A stretch of DNA of 64,000 bases from Bdellovibrionota bacterium (GTDB taxonomy: Bacteria > Bdellovibrionota_C > UBA2361 > CALJRW01): the NCBI GenBank assembly GCA_041740355.1, contig JBGSMD010000026.1, forward strand, positions 1-64,000. The letters are read 5' to 3'. The notes under the pieces were generated by a model, which saw only the letters and a program-made list of their open reading frames with translations, was not told the DNA's origin and made no database searches. The stretch's first letter is position 1, and every line of letters begins with the position of its first letter. Of this stretch, positions 23,113-34,649 are shown in pieces. The translations under genes were made by a program, and so were the position numbers.

Positions 23113-23520
23113 ATGAACGATTTCTTTAAGATTAAAGTTGTTACTCCCGACGGCCTAGAAGTCGAAGCGGAAACAAATGAAGTAACGCTCGAAACTTCCA
23201 AAGGACAGATCACAATCCTACCATCCCACATTACCTATACTTCTCTTTTAGGTTCAGGGATTCTAAATTTCACTGACAGACAAAACAAGAAGCACCAGTT
23301 CGTAACCTGCAACGGATTCTGTAATTTCTTAGAAGATTCAATTATCATCCTTACTGACTATGTTGATCATGCTGAAGGCTTAAACTCTACTGATATCAAC
23401 GCTAAAATCAAAGACCTAGAAGCAAAACTTGGAACGTTAAATCTTAGAGAACCAGAAGCTCAGATGCACACAGAATCACTAGCAAGATACAGAGCACAGT
23501 TGGATTTAATTAGTCATTAA
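23113..23520 (+). CDS. atpC: ATP synthase F1 subunit epsilon
   Basis: IKVVTPDG, GQITILPSH, operon position. Confidence 0.93.
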   Translation: MNDFFKIKVVTPDGLEVEAETNEVTLETSKGQITILPSHITYTSLLGSGILNFTDRQNKKHQFVTCNGFCNFLEDSIIILTDYVDHAEGLNSTDINAKIKDLEAKLGTLNLREPEAQMHTESLARYRAQLDLISH

Positions 23521-23527
23521 AAATTGC

Positions 23528-23818
23528 ATGGCCCCAAAAAAGGATTTAAATAAAAACAAACTTAACTGGAAAGTTTGTTTAAATTGTAAATTCGAGGGAG
23601 AGTTTAACCAAATTAAAGGACTGGTTTGGCTGATAAATTACTTAACATTCTTTCATCCTATCTTCTCAGAAGATGATAACTACTACAAATGCCCAAAGTG
23701 CAAACACAGGCAAAAATCTAACACCAAAGACGATTCATTCACACATATAATGATTGCTTGTTCACTCATCTTCCTAATTGGTATCGTTGTTATCTGGATG
23801 GATGTATTTTTGTTCTAA
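23528..23818 (+). CDS. Small zinc-ribbon membrane protein
   Basis: CLNC...CPKC and a C-terminal TM helix. Confidence 0.6.
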   Translation: MAPKKDLNKNKLNWKVCLNCKFEGEFNQIKGLVWLINYLTFFHPIFSEDDNYYKCPKCKHRQKSNTKDDSFTHIMIACSLIFLIGIVVIWMDVFLF

Positions 23819-23926
23819 ACATTTCATTAATCATCATGATAAGTGACTGATTTTAAATTATTTACGATCTGAGGTATTCCTAATTACTTTTTACAGTAGT
23901 TAAAGATTTAAATTATATTGATCTCC

Positions 23927-24320
23927 ATGAATACTTGCAATAATTTTCCAAAACTAGGGCCAATTATTATTGGAACTGCTGATATTGAACGAGCAAAGAA
24001 ATTTTATATTGCTGTTTTTGGCTTAATTATTGAAAGAGAAGACTTGCATTATGTTAGTGCCCGAGGCAAAGACGGAACCCATATAGAATTAGAAGAAGAT
24101 TCTGCCGACAGATTTCCTAACTGGAAAGAAAGAAACATTGGAACATACAAAAACAGCGAATTTTTTGTTTCTGATATTAATCTTTTCTTAAAAACCTTAG
24201 TTAAAAATGGGGGGTCAAATAATCAGCAATCCTGTAATAAGACCTTGGGGAGACATGGCAGCAGAATTTGCCGATCCAGATGGTAATATTTTTTTGATTA
24301 GCCAGAAGTTGCCTGTATAG
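23927..24320 (+). pseudogene. VOC/glyoxalase family gene with a one-base frameshift
   Basis: DIERAKKFY...FG N-terminus. Removing one G from the G6 run at 24209-24214 restores NGGQIISNPVIRPWGDMAAEFADPDGNIFLISQ to TAG at 24320. Confidence 0.85.
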
Positions 24321-24336
24321 CGCTTACAAGTGGGCG

Positions 24337-24612
24337 CTACCCGATCTTCCTTCTTAAACTAGCCAACTCTTTCTCAATCTTATCTAATCGCCGATTAGAA
24401 TCATCAACCTTAACTAGTCCCGATTTAAGAATTTGATTTAAAAGTCTCTGATAGGGAACGCCGGTATTCTGTGACTGATTTTTTAATTCCAGAAGTGATT
24501 CGGCATCAATATTAATAGTAATTTTTACAGACTTAGCACGCTGAACATTTAAGCGAATTTCCTTCGTTAATTTCCTATTATCTACAAGGCTACTTAGTTT
24601 TGGTTTTTTCAT
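24337..24612 (-). CDS. BrnA/CopG-like antitoxin
   Basis: KITINID...LK......GVPYQRLLNQIL ribbon-helix-helix pattern; overlaps the toxin gene; likely start MKKPKL at 24612. Confidence 0.85.
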   Translation of the reverse strand: MKKPKLSSLVDNRKLTKEIRLNVQRAKSVKITINIDAESLLELKNQSQNTGVPYQRLLNQILKSGLVKVDDSNRRLDKIEKELASLRRKIG

Positions 24613-24871
24613 GATAGTACTCTTTATATTCTCGCCATTCTGCACAACCAAAAATTCTAATCTTATCCTCACGCCATGTAAATCTAGTAGTTAAGATTAC
24701 TCCCTTACTAGATTTGCCAATCCAATAAAATCGTTCTTCGATACTAGAATGTTTTTTATCTTCTAGCACAAAACCAAATGGATCTTTAAATGAGTCAACT
24801 GCTTCGGAAAAGGAAAACCTATGTTTCCTAACATTAGCAATTTCTTTGTCCAAATCCCATTCAAATATCAT
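24590..24871 (-). CDS. brnT: BrnT family toxin (DUF497)
   Basis: FEWD..K...N..KH..SF.EA...F.DP, H...EERF..IG, IRI. Confidence 0.9.
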   Translation of the reverse strand: MIFEWDLDKEIANVRKHRFSFSEAVDSFKDPFGFVLEDKKHSSIEERFYWIGKSSKGVILTTRFTWREDKIRIFGCAEWREYKEYYHEKTKTK

Positions 24872-24946
24872 TTAAACTTTACCATATTTATACATATAGA
24901 TCCATATTTAATATTCTACGAAACAAATATTAGCGAGAACACAGAC

Positions 24947-25794
24947 TTGATATCGCACATTGCAGTATTAAGTTGTCTTGATAGGTGAATAGGGGGATCG
25001 TGGCAGAAAGCCTTGGTAAAATGTGTTGCAACCTATACAACTTGAGGTCACAATATGTGACTTCAAGTTGTTAACTTTTTGAATTGATTATTAAAATATC
25101 AAATCTTCAGAAAATTTGAGATCACAGTTTGAGATTTCAAAGAATGAATCGAAGCAAATGGATTTCCTGATTAATATTTTGCGTCCCTTTCTGATCCGCC
25201 TTACTCATCATCGTGTCGAGAAAATCCCAATTTTCGCTTTTTCGGCTCGGGGACTTGTTCAAGTTGTGAAATTAGAAATCTAATTTCTTGCAATTCTTCA
25301 GAGTGATGAGCAAAGCCTTTAGCTACTTTCAGTTCTAAAGTGTGAAGCCTGTTCTTCAAATCAGAATGTTCGTAAGCAATTTCCTTTAACTTAATAAATA
25401 CTCGAACTAACATAATACTGGCATCAATTGCGATTTCACTATTTAAGACATTTGCCGCCATAACTGCACCATACTCAGTGAATACCCTTGGAGGTTTTCT
25501 TCTTCCACCATGGAGCGAACTTGATATCGCAAATTGCGATATCAAGTCTCTAAACTCTTGAAATGACGATAGAAACATGAAATCACTTGGAAATCTTTTG
25601 ATGTTCCGACTGACTTGTTCATTAAGTCGCATGGTACTAACCCCATATAGCTTCGCAAGATCACTATCTAAAATAACCCTTTGACCTTTAACTATAATAA
25701 TCTTTGATTCAATTTGCTGTGACATTCCAACTAATATCGGGAGTATAAACCAAGAGTTGCGTCGAATGTTTGAGATCCCAAATTGGGATCTCAA
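24947..25794. repeat. Five copies of a 25-bp palindrome TTGANNTCNCA-NNN-TGNGANNTCAA
   Basis: Copies at 24947, 25042, 25116, 25521 (inside the CDS) and 25770. Confidence 0.9.
25201..25725 (-). CDS. ORF6N domain DNA-binding protein
   Basis: GQRVILDSDLAKLYGV...LNEQVSRNIKRFPSDFMF...GGRRKPPRVFTEYG...ANVLNS; likely start MSQQIESK at 25725. Confidence 0.92.
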   Translation of the reverse strand: MSQQIESKIIIVKGQRVILDSDLAKLYGVSTMRLNEQVSRNIKRFPSDFMFLSSFQEFRDLISQFAISSSLHGGRRKPPRVFTEYGAVMAANVLNSEIAIDASIMLVRVFIKLKEIAYEHSDLKNRLHTLELKVAKGFAHHSEELQEIRFLISQLEQVPEPKKRKLGFSRHDDE

Positions 25795-26099
25795 GTTTGT
25801 ATGTTTCTGAGAGGGTTATTAAAAGAAGTTAATAATATGAGATATTGAAACGATGAAACGTAAGGCAAATACTTCTGCCGCCCCCTCGAAGTTGATGTAA
25901 TGTGCAAAATAACAAAATTTACTTCCTTACTTTCACATACCCGTTTCTTTGTGTTCTATAAAGTGAAATCAGAAGAAATGAAACTCTACGAGCTAACGGA
26001 ATAACATTTCCTAGCGTTATCATCAGAATAATAGGTATTTGCAGGTGCACAATATTACTCTAAAATGAGACTAGCTTAAATTTAATAATCCTTAAAAAC

Positions 26100-26942
26100 A
26101 TGCAATTAAAATTATTCCCCACACTAATCACACTACTACTAGCCTTATCTCAGCCAGTGGCGATGTATGCGGACAGTTGCATGCCAAAGAGCATCAGAAC
26201 CTCTGGCCAAAACAAGATATACAAAAAGAATAAGGAATTAATCAAAGAGTCTTGCCTTGATACTGAGAAACGCAAACAATGTTTAAATAAAAAGTTAAAT
26301 AATTATTGTGCCGTTTTCTTTGATTCAGACGCTTCGAAGGTTTCAAAAGATCGAGACCTTGATGGGTTAAAAAAAGCTAAAGACAACTGTCCCTACATTG
26401 AAAATCGTGACCAATTAGATACAGATAATGATGGTAGAGGTGATGTTTGTTTTTGCGATTCTCAAGGCGATGGTGGAATTATCTATTCAGACGTTCAATT
26501 TCTAGAATTTGGTGAGCCAACTACTTCAATTGACACCGTTCAAGATGATGACTGTGATGGTGACTCCGGAACATTCGATCCTGAGCCATTTTCAGATAAC
26601 CACGTTAATTTCACACTTACTAACTCCTTTGGAATTGCTGCTTCATTTGCTACTTTTGGGTACAGGATTAAGAACCTAGATGGTGACACAGAATATCAAA
26701 CTGACGCATATGAACTTAATACTCCTCTAACTCTTGCTGGAAATTGTGCCGCTACAAACGAAACCTTAATTTTGCTATCCGAATTAGACGGAATTAAATA
26801 TATCCTTGGCGCAACGCTTCCAGAATCCCTAATTGGTTTCAAAGAAATTGAATTAGAGTTAAGGGGAAACTTAGCTAATGGACAGGCTATTTATATTCAG
26901 AAATCCGTTAATGTTAGTTTTGGCGATTTCAACAATTGTTAA
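26100..26942 (+). CDS. Secreted protein with thrombospondin type-3 (Ca-binding) repeat
   Basis: Signal peptide; DNCPYIENRDQLDTDNDGRGDVC. Confidence 0.8.
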   Translation: MQLKLFPTLITLLLALSQPVAMYADSCMPKSIRTSGQNKIYKKNKELIKESCLDTEKRKQCLNKKLNNYCAVFFDSDASKVSKDRDLDGLKKAKDNCPYIENRDQLDTDNDGRGDVCFCDSQGDGGIIYSDVQFLEFGEPTTSIDTVQDDDCDGDSGTFDPEPFSDNHVNFTLTNSFGIAASFATFGYRIKNLDGDTEYQTDAYELNTPLTLAGNCAATNETLILLSELDGIKYILGATLPESLIGFKEIELELRGNLANGQAIYIQKSVNVSFGDFNNC

Positions 26943-27159
26943 TTGTTTAAGCCTGGCTCAGTAAAATAAGGTTCAAATAGTATGGGGATGAAAGCTTAAC
27001 CTAGTGCCACGCTTCCTCCTCCTCAAGCAACTTGGCACAAATAGCCCCCTGTAGTTTTATAACATCTCTGATTTTGTCTGAATTAAATCGATCTCTTATC
27101 AGAACACTAGATAGATCTCTAGACTCCCAGCCTGAAGTCTAGATTTTGGATAAGTGGAA

Positions 27160-28125
27160 CTATAACCGATGCTCAATCAAGTGATGAAGTAGCGGTAGCC
27201 TTGGAGGAAACAACCCTGCTGGATATTTCTCTGAAAAGTCACCCCCTAATATCTTTTGATAGATCTCATTTGCCTCTTCACAAATTATCTTGGCATAGTT
27301 AATAAATTGCCTTCTTAATGTCCTATTGCCTGAAATACACCACATCTTCCTACCAGTGCGCTTAGATCTGTACTTTAAATCAATCCCTTGATTCTCAAGC
27401 TTCGATCTTCCCATAAATGATTTCTTTTCTTCCCAGATAGCTAACTGAGTTTCGATAATCATTTTGTGAATTGATTTATTAATCTCATTTACTTCTTTAA
27501 GATCTTTAATATTAAAAGCTTTCATCCAACCATTGGGGCTCAATTCAAGGTTGCCTCTGGCAGGATTATCCTTAGTTAGTAGATTCTTGATCTTTTGAAA
27601 GAACTGAAAGCCTTTGTCTTGGCGTAATTCGAATAGCGAATCTCTAGTAATGTAATTACATTTAATATTTGGAGTATTAGCTTGGTAATTATCCCAAGAA
27701 GATAATCCTGGATACTTATTAATAGACTCTATTAGTCCATCCTTTACTGGATTAGTGTACAGGTAATTAATCTTACTAATTACATCTTCTCTAGTTAATA
27801 AGGCAGGAGAATCATACCTCTCGCACCAGACGGTTCTTTTGGTTCTACCAAGGATTCTGTTTAAGTAATGTGCTGATTCTGTTTTAAAGCGTTCCATGAA
27901 CTTGGGAAGATCTTCAGGATTATCAATCCTGACTATCATGTGAATATGAGTTCCGTTTACGATAAAATGATTGATTTCGAGTGGATGGTGCTTAAAGGCA
28001 CGGATTAATGCTGCCTTTAGTAAGAACTTAACTAAGGGATTAGCTGGAAGCATAATTCCTTCTTCCACGCTTAGCGTTACGAAGTAGACTTTGTTGTTAA
28101 GAATTAATTTACGAAGACGGGGCAT
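27160..28125 (-). mobile_element. HUH Y1 transposase, REP-associated (RAYT-like)
   Basis: MPR...VYFVT, THIHMIV (HUH), VWCERY, YLYTNPVKDGL, YPGLSSW. Confidence 0.88.
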
Positions 28126-28409
28126 AAAACTAGTCAATATTTTTACAATATTGAGCTATCGAAGATACAGGACTGAAGTTGTTCTAAAATTCTTATAAAG
28201 TTGCGTGGCACAAGATGGAAGATGGGAACTACAGGGAGGGAGAGAGACAACAACAAGCCTGCTATTATCAAAATTGTTTGATAAACAAATTGTTAAAGCA
28301 TTATTTTACTATTCATCGTTCAACATACTCCTTGGAATCTCAAATCTCATAGGTTATATTATTTGCCCTAAACAAACCGCATCGACTAAGTGTAAGTGAG
28401 TAAAATAAT

Positions 28410-29495
28410 GTGAAAAAATTATTAAATATTTTTATTAGTGTAGTTTTACTTTTGATACCAATTAATACTTTTGCCGAATCAGAAAAGTGTAAGATTGCGG
28501 TAATCATTCCCCTTTCTGGACAGGTGGCTTCACTGGGGAATTACGTAAAAAAGGGGATTGATTTAGCACTTGAAGAATTACCAATAGATCAAAAAAACAA
28601 ACTAGAAGTAATCTATGAAGATGATCAGTTCAATCCCGTAAAAACTATTAGTATTTATCGACAACTAAAAAGTACTAAGAACATTAATGCCGTTTTCGTT
28701 TTGGGATCTCCTACAGCGAATGCACTTGTACCAATCACTGAAGCAGATAAAACTTTGCTGGTTGCTATTGGGGCCTCTGATCCTACAATTGCAGTAGGCA
28801 AAGAATATTCCTTTATCCACTGGGTAATTCCCCAAGTGCTGGGAGAAAAATTAGCTGCTGAACTTGTCAGAAAAAAATTTCAAAGGATAGCTTTTGTCGC
28901 GGGAGAAGTTTCCGGAGCTATTGCTGATGTGGGTGCTGCAATTGAAGCTTTAGATAAAAAAGGCAAAAAGGATTCAGTTGTTTATCAACAGAATTTTATG
29001 AAAGATATTACCGATTACCGTAGTGAACTTTTAAAATTACGTCAGAACAAAGCTGATGCTGTGGTTGCCGTATTATTTCCGGGGGCACTATCATCTTTTG
29101 CCAAACAATTTAGTGAGATGAAAATTCCAGCAGAACTAATTGGAATGGAAACTTTTGAAGATGAGGCCGAAGTTAAAGCTGCAAATGGTGCGCTGTTAGG
29201 AACTTGGTATGTAAATGCTTCTAATAGCACTTCTGATTTTACTAAGTTATATCAAAAGAAATATAACGAATATCCAGGATGGGCGACGGGCAATAGCTAC
29301 GACTCATTAAAATTAATCGCCTCTGGAGTAAAAGAACTTGGATTTGATAATCATGCGATTAGAGACTCCTTGCGTAATCTTAAGGATTATCAAGGTGCCG
29401 CTGGAATCTATTCAGCTTCTGGGGATAATCGCTTTACTTTACCAGCTTCACTTAAAAGGGTGACAGAGAAGGGGTTTGAAGATTATGAACCCTAA
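28410..29495 (+). CDS. LivJ/K-type periplasmic substrate-binding protein (no permease nearby)
   Basis: Signal peptide; IAVIIPLSG..A..G, YEDDQFNP, YQGAAG. Confidence 0.88.
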   Translation: MKKLLNIFISVVLLLIPINTFAESEKCKIAVIIPLSGQVASLGNYVKKGIDLALEELPIDQKNKLEVIYEDDQFNPVKTISIYRQLKSTKNINAVFVLGSPTANALVPITEADKTLLVAIGASDPTIAVGKEYSFIHWVIPQVLGEKLAAELVRKKFQRIAFVAGEVSGAIADVGAAIEALDKKGKKDSVVYQQNFMKDITDYRSELLKLRQNKADAVVAVLFPGALSSFAKQFSEMKIPAELIGMETFEDEAEVKAANGALLGTWYVNASNSTSDFTKLYQKKYNEYPGWATGNSYDSLKLIASGVKELGFDNHAIRDSLRNLKDYQGAAGIYSASGDNRFTLPASLKRVTEKGFEDYEP

Positions 29496-29739
29496 ATGCA
29501 TGCGTTCCAAATTAACGAGACCATTTGTAACCACACCTCTCTTGATAATAGTTCATTAAGACCCATCCTATTAAAAATCCTAGAATCGTAAACTTGGATA
29601 TCAGCAGATTTTTACCCTCATATATCTAACTATTAAACTTCAAACAGGAAGTTTTTTGATTATTTTGGCTACTAAAAGATGAACTATTTATTGACTTAAC
29701 ACCTAGAATCCTTATTAATAGAACGGCTTTATATTTCAA

Positions 29740-31380
29740 TTGCAAATGATCACATATCAACGAAGACCTGAAGAACTTAGCCTTGTAGCTAAGCGACAAT
29801 TAGAAAATTCACCAATCATTTCAGTCGTTGGTATTAATACGGGAGATGAAGGTAAGGGCAGAACAGTTACCGATACTGTTAAGCTGCTATCAAAGTTAAG
29901 AAATGTTCCCAATCCGGTGCATATGGTTTTTAAGGTCAATGGTGGATCCAATTCTGGTCATACAGTTGACGGACTAAAACACAACTTAGTTCCTGGAGGA
30001 ATTAAAGATCCAAACATAAAATTTTTGGCTCTTGGTCGAGGTGTAGTTGCTGACCCGCGAAAACTTCTTTGGGAAATAACAGTTTTAAAAGACATTCTAG
30101 AGAAGGATGGTGTGCAAGTTGATCGGCGAATAAAAATTGATAACCGCTGTATGGTTTCAGACTTAAGCGATCGCTTATTAGATTTAGCAGGTGAATTATC
30201 TTTGCAAAAAAAAGAAGGTACTAGCCGGGGCTCTACAGGTCGGGGGATTGCACCAGCGTTTGAACATGAAGCCAATCATTCTCAAATATTTTTTGAAACT
30301 CTAATTGACGATCCTGAATTATTTGCTACCCAGCTAACTAAACGTATGGAAGAAGCCGGCCTTCGAATTCGTGATATTTATCAGCTGACAGAAAGGGAAT
30401 GGTACCAGTTGTTTGAGAAATTAACTCAAGCTGAAACTAAAGCACACTTAGAACCAATACGTGATGGTGTATTATCAGAAGATGAATTTAATTTTAAAAG
30501 ATTTGCGACAAGTCGCCCCTTTGAGCTTAATCATCAAGCTTTAATTGCAGAGTATTTTCAAACTGGTCAGTATTTCAAGAAAGACTTAATTGATGTTGGT
30601 GAGCTAGCACTAGAAATAATTGCTCATGGTCACCAAATTATCGCCGAACATGGGCAGTCTTACGGACTAGATAAAAGACATGGCCTTACACCCTTTAGTT
30701 CAACATCATCACACACCTATACCCCAGAAGTCTGGCAGAGTTTAGATATACCTTCTCAAATCACAGCTTACATACAAGGTGTTTGTAAAGCCTATGACAC
30801 TAAAGTTGGAAATCATATTTTTCTAACTCAAATAGAAGAAGAACATCCACTTAGATCTATTTTAGAGCAAGTTGAGTTTGGAACTTCCACTGGTAGACAA
30901 CGAATGGTTGGTTGGAGCGACCTTGTAGAGAAAGGGCATACCTTAAGAAGAGGTGGATATGATGATTTAATCATTAATAAACTAGATATGCTAACAGCTA
31001 GTGGAGATTGGCAAGGCCCACTAAAGGCTTGTGTGGCCTATGAAGATACGGAAGGACATAAATATTATTCTGTTCCATCTAATAATAAGATTCGAGCGGT
31101 GCTTAAGCCAGTATATGTTGAAATGGATGTCTGGAAAGAAGACATTTCTGGAATCAGAGAATTTGAAAAGTTACCACAAGCAGCAAAAGACTACATCGTT
31201 TTTTCTTACTCACAAATTGTAACTATTGCCGAAACGAAAGGAAACATTCTACCAAGCGGTTGGCCAACCTTGCGTTTTGTGGGCGTTGGTCCAGACTCAG
31301 ATCAAATTATTTCTGATATTCCAGCACCACATATCCTGATGGCAATGGCGGATCAACTAAAAGAAAGAATGTTCCCATAA
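29740..31380 (+). CDS. purA: Adenylosuccinate synthetase, long divergent form
   Basis: GDEGKG, GGSNSGHT, STGRGIAPA, EFGTSTGRQRMVGW, NKLD, VGVGP. Confidence 0.9.
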   Translation: MQMITYQRRPEELSLVAKRQLENSPIISVVGINTGDEGKGRTVTDTVKLLSKLRNVPNPVHMVFKVNGGSNSGHTVDGLKHNLVPGGIKDPNIKFLALGRGVVADPRKLLWEITVLKDILEKDGVQVDRRIKIDNRCMVSDLSDRLLDLAGELSLQKKEGTSRGSTGRGIAPAFEHEANHSQIFFETLIDDPELFATQLTKRMEEAGLRIRDIYQLTEREWYQLFEKLTQAETKAHLEPIRDGVLSEDEFNFKRFATSRPFELNHQALIAEYFQTGQYFKKDLIDVGELALEIIAHGHQIIAEHGQSYGLDKRHGLTPFSSTSSHTYTPEVWQSLDIPSQITAYIQGVCKAYDTKVGNHIFLTQIEEEHPLRSILEQVEFGTSTGRQRMVGWSDLVEKGHTLRRGGYDDLIINKLDMLTASGDWQGPLKACVAYEDTEGHKYYSVPSNNKIRAVLKPVYVEMDVWKEDISGIREFEKLPQAAKDYIVFSYSQIVTIAETKGNILPSGWPTLRFVGVGPDSDQIISDIPAPHILMAMADQLKERMFP

Positions 31381-31640
31381 AGCAAATCAAAGACTTTTGA
31401 ACTTATTATTTTGCTAGGATACATCCCGCTGGTAATACTCCACCACAATCACTACCATACTGAGCTGCATCTTGAAGATCTCCGTAACATATTCAGCCTG
31501 GTTCTCGAAACTTGCAGTCTCTGTAATCCTAATCACATTAAAAGCAACATTTTTTATGTAGTAAGCTAGATAAAGTCTTAGCACCAGATAACAAATCGCT
31601 TATAATGTAAGTATGCCGAGAATTCTCCTTTTTTAATTAA

Positions 31641-32564
31641 ATGAAAGTGACACTGAATATTTCCAAGCTACTGGAACAAGGTAAAATTACCAAGGATGAA
31701 TACTTGCGTTTAAATTCTCTTGCCGATCCACCAACGACTTTTATAAATACAAAGCTCTTAGTTGGATTATCTATATTAGCAATATCTATTAGTGGAGTCT
31801 TCCTTCCGCGCTCACCAGAAGCAACACTCTTAACGGGTATTGGCCTTCGCTTATTTACAATCTTCATTTCTAAATTACCTAACTGGCAGATACTCAAGAC
31901 TATCTCTTCACTAGCTGGAGCATTATTTATGGGAGCTGGTATTATCTGGATGGGAGAAGGTTCACATGTCGCATTTTTATTGGTTACTTTTTTATTTGCA
32001 CTGCTTGGATTATACAGTAAAGATAAGCTTCTAATAATTCTCTCCGTACTGAGTTTAACATTTATTCCAACTGGTATTACCGCAGAATCGTCATGGGATT
32101 ATTTTATGCCGTTTCGTGATCCTATCTTAACAATTTCTATCCATACAATTTTAATAATTGTTGGTTATCAGCTATCATTTAACTTACGCAATCACGCTGA
32201 GCAGTTAGCAATAGTTGCAGCACGTACTGCTGTCATTGTAGTAAATCTTGGATTTTGGGTGGGTGCTATCTGGGGCTCTAGCAGTGGATTAATCCCCCTT
32301 AATATTTCTGCTGGTTGGTTTTCAATAATTTGGATTCTTACCCTCGTTTATGCTGCACTCTGGGCATCAAGAGCAAAACGTCCTTGGTTACAAAATGTAT
32401 TATCACTTTCTGTAGGAATACATCTTTATACACAATGGTTCACTAATTTCGGCGTTTCTTTATTTACTCTTCTGCCAGCAGTGATTCTTGCCACAGTAAT
32501 TGCTTTCCTGATCTGGAAATATCTTCAATTCCAGAAATTAGATATTATTAATAAATGGTTTTAA
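31641..32564 (+). CDS. Polytopic membrane protein
   Basis: About 9 TM segments; N-terminal LLEQGKITKDEY. Confidence 0.75.
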   Translation: MKVTLNISKLLEQGKITKDEYLRLNSLADPPTTFINTKLLVGLSILAISISGVFLPRSPEATLLTGIGLRLFTIFISKLPNWQILKTISSLAGALFMGAGIIWMGEGSHVAFLLVTFLFALLGLYSKDKLLIILSVLSLTFIPTGITAESSWDYFMPFRDPILTISIHTILIIVGYQLSFNLRNHAEQLAIVAARTAVIVVNLGFWVGAIWGSSSGLIPLNISAGWFSIIWILTLVYAALWASRAKRPWLQNVLSLSVGIHLYTQWFTNFGVSLFTLLPAVILATVIAFLIWKYLQFQKLDIINKWF

Positions 32565-32766
32565 CTTGTTATCTTCTCAAAGAAAGAGTGTAACCATACC
32601 AAATTGCTTACTAATTTATTCTGATTAATGTCTCAAAAATATCTAATTATTTAAAGTAATAATATGATTCCTATCATATAAAACCCAATCATTGTCTGCC
32701 ACTCTCATTACTAAATAAATCCAAGTTTGAAAAAACCACTAGATAATTTTATTTTAGGTATTCCAT

Positions 32767-33924
32767 ATGAAAGCTGCTGTTTTTCATCGTCCCGGCAAAA
32801 TCACTGTTGATAATGTAGAAGATCCTCAAATTGAACATCCACAAGATGTAATTTTAAAAGTAACTGCAACTGCCATCTGTGGTTCAGATCTACATATGCT
32901 TAACGGGTATATACCGCAGGCACGCCCCATGACTATGGGCCATGAATTTATGGGTATAGTAGAAGAAGTTGGAAATGAAATCTCAAATTTAAAAGTAGGC
33001 GATCGGGTTGTTGTTCCATTTCCGATCGCCTGTGGTAATTGCCATTTCTGCCATGAATTACTTCCTGGTCACTGTGAACATTCCAACGAAAAAAAATATG
33101 GCCCAGAAGGTGGCATTCTAACAGAAAAGGGTGGTGGCATGTTTGGTTACTCCGATCTATATGGTGGATACAACGGAGGGCAGGCTGAATATGTAAGAGT
33201 ACCATATGCGCAATTTGGACCAAGAATTGTTCCCGCTGAACTAAAAGACGAAGAGGCTTTATTTTTAACTGATATTTTCCCTACCGGATATAGTGCGATT
33301 GACTGGTCGCAGATGAAAGGTGGTGAAACAGTAGTTGTTTTCGGTTGTGGTCCGGTAGGATTAATGGCCATGAAATCAGCCTGGTTAAAAGGTGCTAGTA
33401 GAGTAATTGGTGTTGATTTTTTAGAGTATCGCTTAGCAGCAGCTCGTCAACATGCTCAAGCTGAAACAATTAATGCTAATGATGAAGACCTAATTGAAAA
33501 AATTCGTTCGATGACTAACGGACGTGGAGCTGATGTTGCAGTTGATGCCGTGGGATTGGAGGCTAAGCGAAGTTTATTAGAGAAAGCTGCAAATATTATC
33601 CATGCTCAAGTTGGTTCAATTAACGCCCTTCGGATGGCAATCAGCGCTGTGCGACGGGGTGGCGTGGTAACCACTGTTGGAGTTTACGCTATTCCCTATG
33701 ATAACTTTCCACTTGGACAAATTTTTGACAAAGGATTAACTCTTCGCTTTGGTCAGGCTCCTGTGCACAAATATATTGATCAGCTAATGAAATTGGTAGT
33801 CGAAAGAAAATTAAAGCTTGATGATATCATTACTCACCGCATGCCATTACTCCAAGCTTCTGAGGGCTATGATTTATTTAATAATAAAGAAGATAACTGC
33901 GTGAAGGTGGTCTTAATTCCTTAA
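32767..33924 (+). CDS. Zinc-dependent alcohol/aldehyde dehydrogenase (MDR superfamily)
   Basis: ICGSDLH, GHEFMG, CGNCHFC, GCGPVG. Confidence 0.93.
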   Translation: MKAAVFHRPGKITVDNVEDPQIEHPQDVILKVTATAICGSDLHMLNGYIPQARPMTMGHEFMGIVEEVGNEISNLKVGDRVVVPFPIACGNCHFCHELLPGHCEHSNEKKYGPEGGILTEKGGGMFGYSDLYGGYNGGQAEYVRVPYAQFGPRIVPAELKDEEALFLTDIFPTGYSAIDWSQMKGGETVVVFGCGPVGLMAMKSAWLKGASRVIGVDFLEYRLAAARQHAQAETINANDEDLIEKIRSMTNGRGADVAVDAVGLEAKRSLLEKAANIIHAQVGSINALRMAISAVRRGGVVTTVGVYAIPYDNFPLGQIFDKGLTLRFGQAPVHKYIDQLMKLVVERKLKLDDIITHRMPLLQASEGYDLFNNKEDNCVKVVLIP

Positions 33925-34115
33925 GATAAATTAATTTGGATCCAATTTTCAGAAATTCTTAGTGATCGCTATTAATCATAGGGGTTACTACCATCGAGTA
34001 GATTACCCTAATAAAATTAAATCTAATTATAATTAATGGAAGTTTCCGATTATGACTGGGTTGTTTGAAGCGACCAAAGGGGCTTACTAAATCTGACATA
34101 ACAGAACAGGAAAAA

Positions 34116-34649
34116 TCAATCTTCGTGGTCATCTGATTTGTCCACTGTGAGCTTTTTACTGGCATCCCGTTCATAGTTCACAGTACATGTTGATTCGAAA
34201 TCAGACCAAGCATATTTAATATCTTTGCGAGGAAAACCTTTTTCTTCAATCGCAGCTAGTAGAGAAGCTTGGAAATCTCTGGCCATCTTAGGACTGCGAT
34301 CGTCGCCAGGTGATAGCCCAGCAACAGCTATCTCAGCTTTGGAAACATTAATCTTTAACAGATCAATTAAATCTAAAAACTTACCAACTATTTCTGGATC
34401 GTTTCTGATGGGATCTGGATAATGTAATCCAAGAATCACTTGTGGTTGTTTGGAAACTAGGATCATACCAAGACAAGGACCTACGCCTTCTGAAGTAACG
34501 AACTCAGGATTGCCAGTAATAATTAATACTTCATGTTCTTGAATCCTTACCTCATCACTATATTCCGCACGGATATGCCTGAAATTAGCAGCTTTAAACA
34601 AAGCGGCTTGTTCGCTAGTTATCTGTAAATTTGATTCTGGATTTGGCAT
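34116..34649 (-). CDS. Hypothetical protein, CheD-like Cys-His fold
   Basis: VTSEGVGPCLGMILV...ILGLHY resembles CheD TxxLGSCxxxxL...GxxH. Confidence 0.6.
   Translation of the reverse strand: MPNPESNLQITSEQAALFKAANFRHIRAEYSDEVRIQEHEVLIITGNPEFVTSEGVGPCLGMILVSKQPQVILGLHYPDPIRNDPEIVGKFLDLIDLLKINVSKAEIAVAGLSPGDDRSPKMARDFQASLLAAIEEKGFPRKDIKYAWSDFESTCTVNYERDASKKLTVDKSDDHED

Follow-up and report, generated by a model that had tools for sequence, protein, structure and literature searches.

An ORF6N gene with a palindrome in its coding sequence

The ORF6N proteins form a large family, predicted to bind DNA and hardly studied so far, with members in phages, mobile elements and chromosomes. In the window analysed here, a stretch of 64,000 nucleotides from a Bdellovibrionota bacterium (assembly GCA_041740355.1, contig JBGSMD010000026.1, positions 1-64,000, forward strand), the signature peptide of one ORF6N gene is encoded by a perfect palindrome and variant copies of that palindrome lie on both sides of the gene. 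We asked what keeps a palindrome inside this coding sequence and what the surrounding copies are. A sequence-only reading of the same DNA had offered three alternatives: a reservoir of cassettes that diversifies the peptide, operators for a protein that binds the DNA encoding its own motif, and a small mobile hairpin domesticated in the gene. The coordinates and sequences that it gave for the palindromes and its translations of the flanking copies were correct on re-examination. The features of the locus are:

24947..24971, degenerate palindrome copy, 8/11 arm pairs
25037..25071, solo palindrome downstream of the ORF6N gene; core 25042-25066 with 10/11 pairs, arms reaching 16 nt
25116..25140, degenerate palindrome copy, 9/11 arm pairs, 61 nt past the ORF6N stop codon
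25201..25725, minus strand, ORF6N gene, 174 aa; N-terminal winged-helix ORF6N domain, then a long C-terminal helix
25521..25545, perfect 25-nt palindrome within the ORF6N gene; arms reaching 14 nt (25519-25547)
25770..25794, perfect solo palindrome, ending 44 nt upstream of the ORF6N start codon
25800..25931, minus strand, decayed ORF6N gene fragment covering family-profile positions 53-98, with a badly degraded palindrome near its 5' end

The product of the ORF6N gene matched Pfam PF10543 (E 2.9e-28; 98.4 bits, cut-off 27.8) over all 86 profile positions and the gene is one of four in the genome above the PF10543 cut-off. Its start codon is the ATG at 25725 and not the TTG at 25794: the 1774 homologues, mostly of 168 aa, begin at the Met corresponding to 25725, and the longer N-termini seen in homologues are unrelated. 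The copy at 25770 is perfect, open and in frame with the gene, as had been noted earlier, but given the start shared by the homologues it precedes the coding sequence. The in-gene palindrome encodes LISQFAIS, residues 61-68, in a low-confidence loop of the ORF6N domain.

A search of the window with an IUPAC pattern of the palindrome gave four matches (25042, 25116, 25521 and 25770) against 0.02 expected, and four or more matches occurred in none of 100 shuffles of the window. The copy at 24947 was detected at a looser threshold only; its left arm and two flanking bases are the same as in the in-gene copy, from which it differs at 3 of 22 arm positions. A palindrome resembling the 25042 copy was found inside other ORF6N genes (L096 and L101). 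Folding as single-stranded DNA gave -13.3 kcal/mol for the in-gene copy (z -7.8), -10.6 for the 25770 copy and -13.0 for the 25042 copy (z -6.7); z values of the three hairpins ranged from -5.3 to -7.8 and none of 200 shuffles folded as well. The 25116 and 24947 copies did not fold better than shuffles (60/200 and 48/200 as good), so that the compensatory arm changes reported earlier for all four flanking copies hold for 25770 and 25042 and not for the other two.

Scanning of the 3.27-Mb assembly with the strict pattern returned five matches, and six when up to two mismatches were allowed, all at the four ORF6N loci; the copies were not evenly scattered. The number rises to seven when the degenerate 24947 copy is counted, and three of these 6-7 copies lie within coding sequence. 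When any 11-3-11 palindrome with this centre was allowed, the assembly contained 11, compared with 2-3 in shuffles; six were at the four ORF6N loci, one within each of the four genes, and the other five were unrelated sequences. Family-type copies outside the ORF6N loci numbered zero in this genome. Solo copies in other genomes likewise adjoin ORF6N genes, and viral ORF6N genes have nearly no further copies within 10 kb on either side. The palindrome element is tied to ORF6N.

Conservation of the palindrome across the ORF6N family

Among about 270 ORF6N genes, drawn from many phyla, almost every one has the palindrome at the same position. Analysis of 93 gene copies from 84 loci revealed a mean of 9.69 Watson-Crick pairs in 11 arm positions, against 4.50 expected when synonymous codons were resampled; 11 pairs were present in 41 copies, 10 in 36, 9 in seven, 8 in one and four or fewer in eight, and in these eight the palindrome was present at another offset or in another frame. 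With the peptide fixed, a perfect palindrome would arise by chance with a probability of about 5e-6 to 4e-5. In a second, independent set, which comprised 86 gene copies at 80 metagenome loci, 11 pairs were present in 54 copies, 10 in 26 and 9 in six. The palindrome was also found in 10 of 12 more distant genes (32-45% identity) and in nearly all ORF6N genes from viral contigs.

Double compensatory changes are common in the arms: the pair 5/21 is GC in 38 copies, TA in 18 and AT in 10; 6/20 is GC in 49 and AT in 20; 8/18 is CG in 66, TA in nine and GC in four; and 9/17 is GC in 60, AT in 13 and CG in 11. That the codon block would be palindromic in homologues, with covariation between its arms, was a suggestion of the sequence-only reading which both locus sets bear out. 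These changes frequently alter the encoded amino acids. Among close homologues with Ile or Met at motif position 2, position 7 was Ile in 44 and Thr in seven, while with Arg or Lys at position 2 it was Thr in 53 and Ile in three. A subfamily with the motif VVANCDH, to which a paralogue of this same genome (contig C51) and the loci L080, L081 and L083 belong, has this inner palindrome too, translated in another frame and still with one compensatory pair. Almost no variation is seen at arm positions 1-4, 7 and 10-12, whatever the phylum or reading frame.

What is constrained is therefore the nucleic acid and not the peptide, as compensatory changes alter amino acids and a whole subfamily translates the palindrome in another frame. 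The palindrome is a cis-acting nucleic-acid element carried in the coding sequence of the ORF6N family itself, located where the gene encodes a permissive loop of the winged-helix domain. The ORF6N signature peptide is in effect the shadow of a DNA palindrome, and its conservation says little on protein function; the element offers a clear natural example of a nucleic-acid constraint that prevails over amino-acid sequence and reading frame. The earlier reading had expected something undescribed at this locus, and the portions of the ORF6N and PDC-S05 literature that were available make no mention of a palindrome in ORF6N genes.

Extra copies, relics and truncated genes

Extra copies are present at about one quarter of the loci and about three quarters have no second copy. 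Family-like extra copies were found at 19 of 81 loci (27 copies) and, in the metagenome set, at 20 of 80 (22 copies), which agrees with the enrichment of flanking copies at ORF6N loci proposed from the window. Most lie about 50-135 nt upstream of a start codon, and many are contained in truncated ORF6N fragments that start or stop at the palindrome. An extra copy differs from the resident in-gene palindrome at a mean of 4.85 of 22 arm positions, compared with 5.59 +/- 0.40 for random assignment; values as low as 4.85 occurred in 3% of permutations and one of the 27 extra copies was identical to its resident. Locus-specific matching of extra and in-gene palindromes thus appears marginal, and because the extra copies are barely closer to the palindrome of their own gene than random there is no sign of site-protein matching per locus.

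With the four palindromes masked, the relic at 25800-25931 scored 1.1 against the family HMM, a score above zero being reached in none of 100 shuffles, and tblastn with subfamily proteins detected it at E 2.7e-4 in a small flank database. Similarity around the 25770 copy was weak (E 0.06-0.1) and that beside the 25042 copy (E 1e-3) was obtained with the palindrome unmasked; with palindromes masked, the DNA beside the downstream copies scored -6.4 against a shuffle median of -4.4, which is not significant. A different ORF6N subfamily, present in six related genomes, has the sequence of the 25770 copy without a single change as its in-gene palindrome; exact matches of 25-28 nt occur in G033, G028, G036, G025 and G007, each in an ORF6N-type frame. 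This subfamily has no gene in the present genome, and the flanks of the 25770 copy share no DNA similarity with the six genomes having the identical 25 nt. The sequence-only reading had taken the spacers to have no relation to the gene and the copies not to be duplicated gene fragments; this is partly wrong, in view of the relic, of the match of the 25770 copy to another subfamily and of the truncated fragments bounded by the palindrome at other loci.

Such partial ORF6N fragments had a boundary within profile positions 51-72 (motif at 59-66) in 12 of 23 and 8 of 17 cases, for example at L029, L047, L095, L101 and L214, an excess swollen by relatedness among the loci and by the way local alignments stop where the level of conservation shifts. 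Short ORF6N proteins in the databases frequently stop a few residues past the motif. Other rearrangements at the motif include a hybrid palindrome whose two arms differ in type (L047), a motif segment duplicated in frame (L208) and an internal deletion beginning in the motif (P0146), and tandem arrays of divergent ORF6N paralogues occur at L030 (four genes), L074 (three) and L087. The flanking copies of the window are best read, on these comparisons, as leftovers of broken sister ORF6N genes and not as cassettes. The palindrome explains both the short ORF6N fragments and the orphan palindromes that litter such loci, which matters for annotation as fragments of this kind get called as small ORFs.

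The ORF6N protein

The AlphaFold2 model of the protein (pLDDT 80.7) contains a beta-hairpin, a helix-turn-helix, a wing and a helix of 60 residues; residues 51-80, which include the motif, have pLDDT 55-70. Family conservation peaks at the helix-turn-helix and the next segment (about 0.9 per column), and the motif peptide is conserved less than the helix-turn-helix. The homodimer model scored 0.74, with 0.00 for the best control, a mark reached by 20 of 30 proteins solved as same-chain pairs and by 1 of 23 solved as single chains; model runs had at least 37% of contacts in common and a partner pLDDT of at least 68. From these models the ORF6N product is a plausible symmetric DNA binder.

Foldseek with the model found no structural relative at E <= 1e-3, the best matches being Dachshund/Ski (probability 0.84, E 0.34), followed by MerR and MarR rows at E 0.3-1.5. 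Membership of the MerR-type regulators was rejected on that result together with the lack of a Pfam MerR match and of any PDB match in a sequence search; 'MerR-like' is used here as a description of the predicted model and not of family membership.

The protein matched three PADLOC models of PDC-S05, a candidate single-gene defence system, at E 8.9e-45, 4.3e-44 and 7.3e-32. A PDC-S05 representative lowered the plating of T7 and T5 about 1000-fold; it is described with a RhuM domain, and the available part of that report does not mention a palindrome (10.1101/2024.09.26.614923).

Possible functions of the palindrome

The explanation that we favour, with a probability of roughly 0.4, is that the palindrome is a symmetric cis-site bound by the winged-helix homodimer of the gene that carries it, giving autogenous control, and that the site is also fragile. 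This is the second of the three earlier alternatives, operators for a protein that recognises the DNA encoding its own motif. The palindrome would be the symmetric recognition site of a dimer joined through the long C-terminal helix in a MerR-like layout, and the protein would control its own gene from the in-gene site and, where present, from another site close to the promoter. The recognition helix, itself nearly invariant, would contact the invariant bases (arm positions 1-4, 7 and 10-12); the remaining arm positions would be free to vary, but dimer symmetry and hairpin-templated correction of one arm by the other would keep the two arms alike. Such correction is needed because symmetric covariation at freely varying positions is a prediction of base pairing and not of simple duplex recognition. 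In favour of autogenous control, promoter-proximal extra copies recur in two locus sets; it would be odd for a regulator to have no visible target besides its own gene. A promoter scan at the window locus gave seven sites against 5.5 expected, none convincingly placed relative to a window copy.

The fragile side of this proposal, which is partly shown, supposes that a hairpin-forming palindrome is a weak point at which neighbouring ORF6N paralogues tend to be truncated, and that fragments centred on or bounded by the palindrome outlive the rest of the gene. The four flanking copies of the window, and a fifth, very decayed one near 25900, would then be leftovers at differing stages of decay, the perfect 25770 copy having possibly been retained as an upstream site. 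A bolder version, which we regard as improbable, makes the locus a self-recognition module: the 25-bp site of the dimer would also encode a peptide in the DNA-facing wing, so that site and reader would change together, and the hairpin would make the gene breakable, so that paralogues of a defence-type family would arise and vanish quickly.

Several rival explanations were weighed against this one. The palindrome could act through structure only, as a single-stranded DNA hairpin or cruciform that serves as a substrate for breakage, template switching or recombination and turns over ORF6N arrays, breakage itself being the function, for instance in rapid gain and loss within a defence-type family such as one matching PDC-S05. 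We consider this unlikely, although several observations would suit it: matching changes in both arms at positions where loci vary freely, strong predicted DNA hairpins, the clustering of fragment boundaries at the palindrome, the hybrid, duplicated and deleted motifs, and the arrays of divergent paralogues. Pure structure does not require the near-invariant arm positions, no recombinase or nuclease gene is conserved beside ORF6N (70 upstream neighbours match 109 families), and recombination at the motif was not detected among 109 close homologues. In a max-chi-square scan of 5809 pairs of these, 44 pairs exceeded 15, and their breakpoints lay at columns 90-145 except for one at 25-29; as none falls at the motif (column 60), swapping of gene halves finds no support. 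The same scan speaks against the cassette reservoir, in which flanking copies would donate peptide variants to the expressed gene by conversion. That idea arose from several variant copies within 600 nt of the gene which translate to versions of the same motif. Ala is kept at motif position 6 in 110 of the 111 close homologues with a readable motif, and the Gly, Glu and Val versions of the flanking copies occur in 0 of 111. Two of the four flanking copies are decayed, the copies consist of the 25-mer alone, with no homology to the gene in their flanks, and hence are no usable cassettes, and neither a conserved recombinase nor another partner gene is present. In-gene alleles equal to a flanking copy, which the sequence-only reading had proposed to look for, were absent from the contigs of three DNA runs of one study, although such contigs drop rare variants. 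A reservoir is, on this evidence, the least credible of the explanations considered and very improbable.

A selfish or frozen palindrome, that is an ancient insertion in a permissive loop with arms kept by hairpin-templated repair, a tolerated peptide and no present cis function, would account for the position of the peptide in the least confident part of the AlphaFold2 model, for its weaker conservation than the helix-turn-helix and for the tolerance of a wholly different reading frame. It would also suit the loop variants, which come as reverse-complement pairs: palindrome centres occur in both orientations, those encoding Ile and Phe being similarly frequent among close homologues. The in-frame palindromic insertions reported for Rickettsia would be a parallel. 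We judge it quite unlikely, given that the palindrome is kept in nearly all of the roughly 270 genes in spite of being a break point, that core bases are invariant in both reading frames, that the 25770 solo copy is unchanged within flanks saturated with changes and that solo copies sit at a preferred distance upstream of start codons. The two orientations count against an RNA hairpin in the mRNA or its untranslated regions that would control translation, processing or stability. All copies of the window could share one transcript, the stem of 11-13 pairs is stable and T-rich tails follow two copies, yet these tails are on the plus strand, opposite to the gene. Mismatched pairs read on the sense strand were 9 G-U, 19 A-C and 25 other in the 84-locus set and 6, 18 and 14 in the 80-locus metagenome set; the combined counts (15 G-U, 37 A-C) show no G-U excess, the surplus of A-C arising from synonymous third-position changes. 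Rfam gave no match at threshold (best 21.5 bits, gathering score 48). A structured RNA motif was rejected on the last two results, and we give any RNA reading little chance. An equally poor chance is given to a site read by a different factor with no linkage to the gene, for instance a nucleoid protein of the host, a methyltransferase, a restriction enzyme or a phage protein directed at ORF6N genes. Palindromes within one locus differ from each other, which would fit a single reader everywhere, and the family is flagged as a defence candidate; a general factor should have other sites in the genome, however, and this site has none, and a single host factor would not be expected over so broad a range of taxa.

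Binding of the palindrome by the product of its own gene is a concrete hypothesis and a cheap one to examine, with a 25-bp probe and a 19-kDa protein. If true, a signature motif dictated across phyla and reading frames by the gene's own operator would be a novel way of coupling a protein with its cis-site.

Comparison with known systems

In phage lambda the O gene contains the ori iterons, dyad-symmetric sites for its own protein that lie in a region encoding a tolerant linker and are conserved as DNA. The ORF6N gene resembles it in having predicted dyad sites of the protein inside a tolerant part of its own coding sequence. Lambda O has four iterons that form a replication origin, whereas ORF6N has one 25-bp palindrome with no indication of a replication function, and the gene studied here is a stand-alone chromosomal gene among housekeeping genes. 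Escherichia coli purR encodes an autoregulated dimeric repressor with a palindromic operator past its own start codon and a second site near the promoter, an arrangement that the in-gene and promoter-near palindromes of ORF6N would share. To our knowledge, in-gene operators of the purR type are not conserved across phyla and do not dictate the signature peptide of a family; the ORF6N site, unlike these, overrides the protein sequence and, beyond that, the reading frame. Regulators of the MerR family recognise long dyad sites and, like the predicted ORF6N model, have an N-terminal winged helix-turn-helix and a long pairing helix that touches the DNA-binding domain of the partner; the two differ in that ORF6N has no Pfam MerR match and its Foldseek MerR rows were at E 0.4-1.5.

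REPs are short hairpin-forming palindromes that cluster in intergenic DNA, as the copies of the window do, and occur in tens to hundreds per genome, flanking a RAYT gene. A RAYT-like gene is located at 27160-28137, 1.4 kb from the locus (NF047646, 72.7 bits, below the cut-off of 80), and 16-mers from its flanks were not repeated elsewhere in the genome. A REP/RAYT system was rejected, as the 6-7 copies are neither numerous nor dispersed, all being at ORF6N loci and none beside the RAYT-like gene. The palindromic elements of Rickettsia are in-frame insertions in protein genes and, like the ORF6N palindrome, consist of translated palindromic DNA in a tolerant protein region; they are longer, scattered over unrelated genes and recently mobile, in contrast to an ancient 25-nt palindrome of one gene family. 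A mobile miniature element was rejected for ORF6N because of the confinement of family-type and solo copies to ORF6N loci, and with it, as a present-day element, the domesticated mobile hairpin that had been the third of the earlier alternatives.

Genomic context of the locus

No conserved neighbour of ORF6N was identified; among the Pfam families matched by the 70 upstream neighbours the most frequent were methylmalonyl-CoA mutase (four, from related loci) and ORF6N itself (three). Matches among phages were limited to four unannotated metagenomic phage records, with none to cultured phages. In contigs of the three DNA runs, ORF6N palindromes of other organisms matched 25038-25074 and no flip of the centre was seen. 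A metagenome scan for orthologous loci gave nothing above 54% identity, and the closest locus in a genome, L005, shows 75% identity. The genome G001, of the same genus, is collinear with the window up to 23520 and again from about 34200 and lacks the ORF6N locus, so that an empty site could not be defined. A BrnT/BrnA pair neighbours the ORF6N gene and the locus lies in a variable island, which provides a weak context for defence.

Palindromes at the ORF6N locus

Analysis of the minus-strand frame 25201-25794 indicated a match to Pfam ORF6N (98.4 bits against a cut-off of 27.8). The homologues are mostly 168 aa long and their first residue corresponds to the Met encoded at 25725, and the N-terminal extensions of longer database homologues are mutually unrelated; the gene was therefore assigned to 25201-25725. 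All palindromes named in the sequence-only reading were found in the window sequence. They are 25 nt long (11-nt arms, 3-nt centre) and are designated here by their start positions.

25201-25725, minus strand: ORF6N gene, from the Pfam match and homologue starts
25521-25545: in-gene palindrome, perfect; single-stranded DNA (ssDNA) fold -13.3 kcal/mol
25770-25794: upstream palindrome, perfect; ssDNA fold -10.6 kcal/mol
25042: downstream palindrome, 10 of 11 arm pairs, arms reaching 16 nt; ssDNA fold -13.0 kcal/mol
25116: downstream palindrome, 9 of 11 arm pairs; ssDNA fold no better than shuffles
24947: downstream palindrome, 8 of 11 arm pairs; ssDNA fold no better than shuffles
25931-25800, minus strand: decayed ORF6N fragment (profile positions 53-98), directly upstream of the 25770 copy

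The ssDNA folds of copies 25521, 25770 and 25042 gave z values of -5.3 to -7.8. An IUPAC pattern of the palindrome had four matches in the 64-kb window (0.02 expected), and four or more matches occurred in 0 of 100 shuffles.

Conservation of the palindrome in ORF6N genes

A first set of 80 loci was collected from species-representative genomes (40-75% identity) of phyla including Bdellovibrionota, Acidobacteriota, Bacteroidota, Planctomycetota, Omnitrophota and Nitrospirota, and the 25 nt aligned to the window motif were excised from each gene. Among the 93 gene copies, own paralogues counted, 11 of 11 arm pairs were Watson-Crick in 41, 10 in 36, 9 in 7, 8 in 1 and at most 4 in 8; these last eight hold the palindrome too, at a shifted register, and are not true exceptions. 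The mean was 9.69 pairs against 4.50 after random synonymous re-encoding of each peptide, and for the commonest peptides a perfect palindrome would arise by chance with a probability of about 5e-6 to 4e-5. A second, independent set (80 metagenome loci, 86 gene copies) had 11 pairs in 54 copies, 10 in 26 and 9 in 6, and nearly all ORF6N genes on 80 viral contigs carry the palindrome. The expectation that homologues would be palindromic was thus borne out in both locus sets and in the viral contigs. It is this palindrome, shared across the family irrespective of reading frame, that is of interest; the initial observation is confirmed and much extended.

Among 12 more distant genes from five further genomes, ten have the palindrome, one of them displaced behind an insertion, and two are without it. 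The genes L109 and L112 of genome G043 (~35-43% identical to the window protein) have no palindrome at all and could be used as natural controls for the element's function. In a related genome, the ORF6N gene of L099 (~230-345) is broken 15 nt past its palindrome by a MITE-like insertion of ~120 nt whose terminal inverted repeats measure 12 nt; the gene resumes beyond the insertion.

Covariation of the arms and the encoded peptide

The arm covariation proposed from the window alone proved real across homologues: each of the four variable arm pairs occurs as three Watson-Crick types (pair 9/17, for example, is GC in 60, AT in 13 and CG in 11). The compensatory changes often alter amino acids. 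In 111 close homologues, I or M at motif position 2 goes with I (44 times) or T (7 times) at position 7, and R or K at position 2 with T (53 times) or I (3 times). The own paralogue on contig C13 pairs a C-initial Arg codon with Ala in place of Ser at motif position 8, and the synonymous Ser codon used is predictive of the partner residue, Ala, Val or Gly. The VVANCDH subfamily (the own paralogue on contig C51 and loci L080, L081 and L083) has the same inner palindrome at the same gene location in another reading frame, which again contains a compensatory pair. This subfamily is the strongest evidence for constraint at the nucleic-acid level; the signature peptide thus follows from the DNA sequence as a by-product. 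In an AF2 model of the window protein (pLDDT 80.7) the peptide falls in residues 51-80, the one part of the domain modelled with low confidence, which lies between two strands flanking the helix-turn-helix; the peptide is also less conserved than the helix-turn-helix.

Sense-strand mismatched arm pairs were not enriched in G-U in the first set (9 G-U, 19 A-C, 25 other) or in the second (6, 18 and 14), and the A-C excess is located where synonymous third-position changes create it. Both orientations of the palindrome centre were found: Ile and Phe centres, each the reverse complement of the other, are present in similar numbers, and His-Phe, the flip partner of the Asn centre, is also present. 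An Rfam search matched the palindrome to no family. The lack of G-U excess, the two centre orientations and the Rfam result favour a strand-symmetric DNA element rather than RNA.

Distribution and origin of additional copies

In the whole assembly (3.27 Mb, 74 contigs, 36% G+C), which has four ORF6N genes, the strict pattern matched five times, or six with up to two mismatches allowed. Generic 11-3-11 palindromes with the same centre numbered 11, where shuffles gave 2-3. The ORF6N loci account for six of them, each of the four genes containing a perfect copy, and the remaining five are unrelated sequences. Since both scans place family copies at ORF6N loci, the element is tied to these loci and is not dispersed genome-wide.

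Comparison of the 25770 palindrome with six genomes of the same order revealed 100% identity over 25-28 nt in five and 88% over 34 nt in the sixth. All six matches fall within ORF6N-type frames that share 38-49% identity with the window protein and belong to a different subfamily, one with no gene in this genome. The fragment at 25931-25800 scored 1.1 with all four palindromes masked (above 0 in 0 of 100 shuffles) and had a tblastn E of 2.7e-4, obtained with a small flank database; the surroundings of the 25770 copy showed weak ORF6N similarity (E 0.06-0.1), and similarity beside the downstream copies was not significant after palindrome masking. From the relic similarity and the subfamily match, the locus appears to be an intact gene amid sister-gene remains. 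The palindrome is what stays recognisable longest in these remains, and the copies run from perfect (25770) to almost lost (24947 and ~25900). The flanking palindrome cluster is best read as ordinary gene debris. The 25 nt of the 25770 copy are unchanged although the flanks lack DNA similarity to the other genomes; this copy has therefore either been kept, by selection or self-correction, or is recent.

Enrichment of flanking copies was also seen elsewhere, with 27 family-like extra palindromes in 19 of 81 loci of the first set and 22 in 20 of 80 of the second. The majority are found 50-135 nt upstream of the start codon, which leaves 13-77 nt between their ends and the codon; a smaller group is ~300-320 nt upstream, and a few directly follow the stop codon. 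Only 1 of 27 was identical to the resident in-gene palindrome, and on average 4.85 of 22 arm positions differed, against 5.59 +/- 0.40 for random partners; the extra copies are thus not duplicates of the resident palindrome.

Incomplete ORF6N genes harbour many of the extra copies. A family profile searched against six-frame translations of both locus sets gave 23 and 17 partial ORF6N matches, of which 12 and 8, respectively, have a boundary inside profile positions 51-72, a range that includes the motif (59-66). Examples are:

L029: intact VVANCDH-type 5' half ending five codons past its palindrome; a complete gene begins 20 nt on
L047, L214: 5' half ending at the palindrome
L095, L101: 3' parts starting at the palindrome
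L025, L026, L038, L251-L254: pieces spanning the motif to about profile position 90-98

Among short database proteins, some of which stem from contig ends, many N-terminal fragments stop a few residues past the motif, and 24 of 72 consist of the C-terminal 80 aa, beginning with the first Met past it. As related loci and alignment-end effects inflate the counts, the excess of fragment boundaries at the palindrome counts as moderate evidence.

The palindrome at L047 57-81 is a hybrid that combines a left arm of the common type with a right arm typical of the frame-shifted subfamily, and it terminates a 5' gene fragment, as expected from crossover inside the shared core. In the ORF6N gene at L208 1501-2103 the palindrome segment is duplicated in tandem and in frame (profile positions 52-69 twice). 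At loci L030 (384-2193), L074, L087 and L096, two to four complete and mutually divergent ORF6N genes stand in tandem ~600 nt apart, with palindromes differing between genes; L096 additionally contains a convergent ORF6N pair. As an exception to differing copies, L026 has the same palindrome in a complete gene and an upstream fragment.

Candidate reader and mechanism

No conserved neighbour gene was found (70 upstream neighbours match 109 different families, mostly housekeeping), and almost no further palindrome copies occur within 10 kb of ORF6N genes on viral contigs; the obvious candidate reader is the ORF6N product itself. The AF2 model consists of a beta-hairpin, a helix-turn-helix (residues 20-40), a wing and a 60-residue helix. 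The two-chain model is a symmetric dimer formed via the 60-residue helix, each helix contacting the partner's DNA-binding domain. Its score is 0.74 (best control 0.00), a value attained by 20 of 30 proteins solved as one-chain pairs and by one among 23 single-chain structures. No fewer than 37% of contacts agree between runs, and partner pLDDT is 68 or higher. Family conservation peaks in the helix-turn-helix region and, within the palindrome, at arm positions 1-4, 7 and 10-12. The layout of the modelled dimer resembles MerR proteins; membership in MerR was unsupported by Pfam, PDB sequence search or Foldseek.

Three explanations had been put forward for the palindromes. The best available mechanism, to which we give a probability of about 0.4, is that they are operators; the ORF6N dimer would read the palindrome inside its own gene and thereby autoregulate it. 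The weak point of the operator reading is that arm positions free to vary covary symmetrically, a pattern that taken alone indicates base pairing. For this reason correction of one arm from the other within a hairpin, a known mechanism for quasi-palindromes, is invoked; it would produce such covariation and account for the fragility of the palindrome as well. A cassette reservoir diversifying the peptide is not supported, nor is a domesticated mobile hairpin, family-type copies being confined to the ORF6N loci of this genome.

No published description of an ORF6N palindrome was found in the literature searched. The closest known precedents are in-gene operators of autoregulated repressors and the ori iterons that lie within lambda gene O. 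There is a small chance that the finding is more unusual than these in-gene sites.

Genomic context

The window protein matches the PADLOC candidate PDC-S05, one representative of which, described with a RhuM domain, is reported to have protected E. coli against T7, T5 and T4 (10.1101/2024.09.26.614923). The stretch ~23521-34200 holding the ORF6N locus has no counterpart in G001, a genome of the same genus that is collinear to window position 23520 (81-93% identity) and again from ~34200. Besides the ORF6N locus, this variable island contains a toxin-antitoxin pair, a transposase and a lipoprotein-like gene that has a thrombospondin-type repeat.

24337-24871, minus strand: BrnT toxin gene (PF04365, E 8e-18) and adjoining CopG/BrnA-like antitoxin gene (E 8e-6, slightly below the Pfam cut-off), overlapping by 83 nt as listed; directly downstream of the palindrome cluster
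27160-28137, minus strand: RAYT-like gene, 1.4 kb from the ORF6N locus, for a 325-aa REP-associated-type Y1 transposase (Pfam Y1_Tnp; NF047646 72.7 bits, cut-off 80)
23918-24320, plus strand: glyoxalase/bleomycin-resistance-type gene

No 16-mer of the RAYT-like gene flanks recurs elsewhere in this genome, and no ORF6N palindromes lie beside the gene; its sequence matches many G001 contigs and is thus multi-copy there. The glyoxalase-type gene appears split into two overlapping frames (23918-24286 and 24207-24320), suggesting a frameshift or assembly error.
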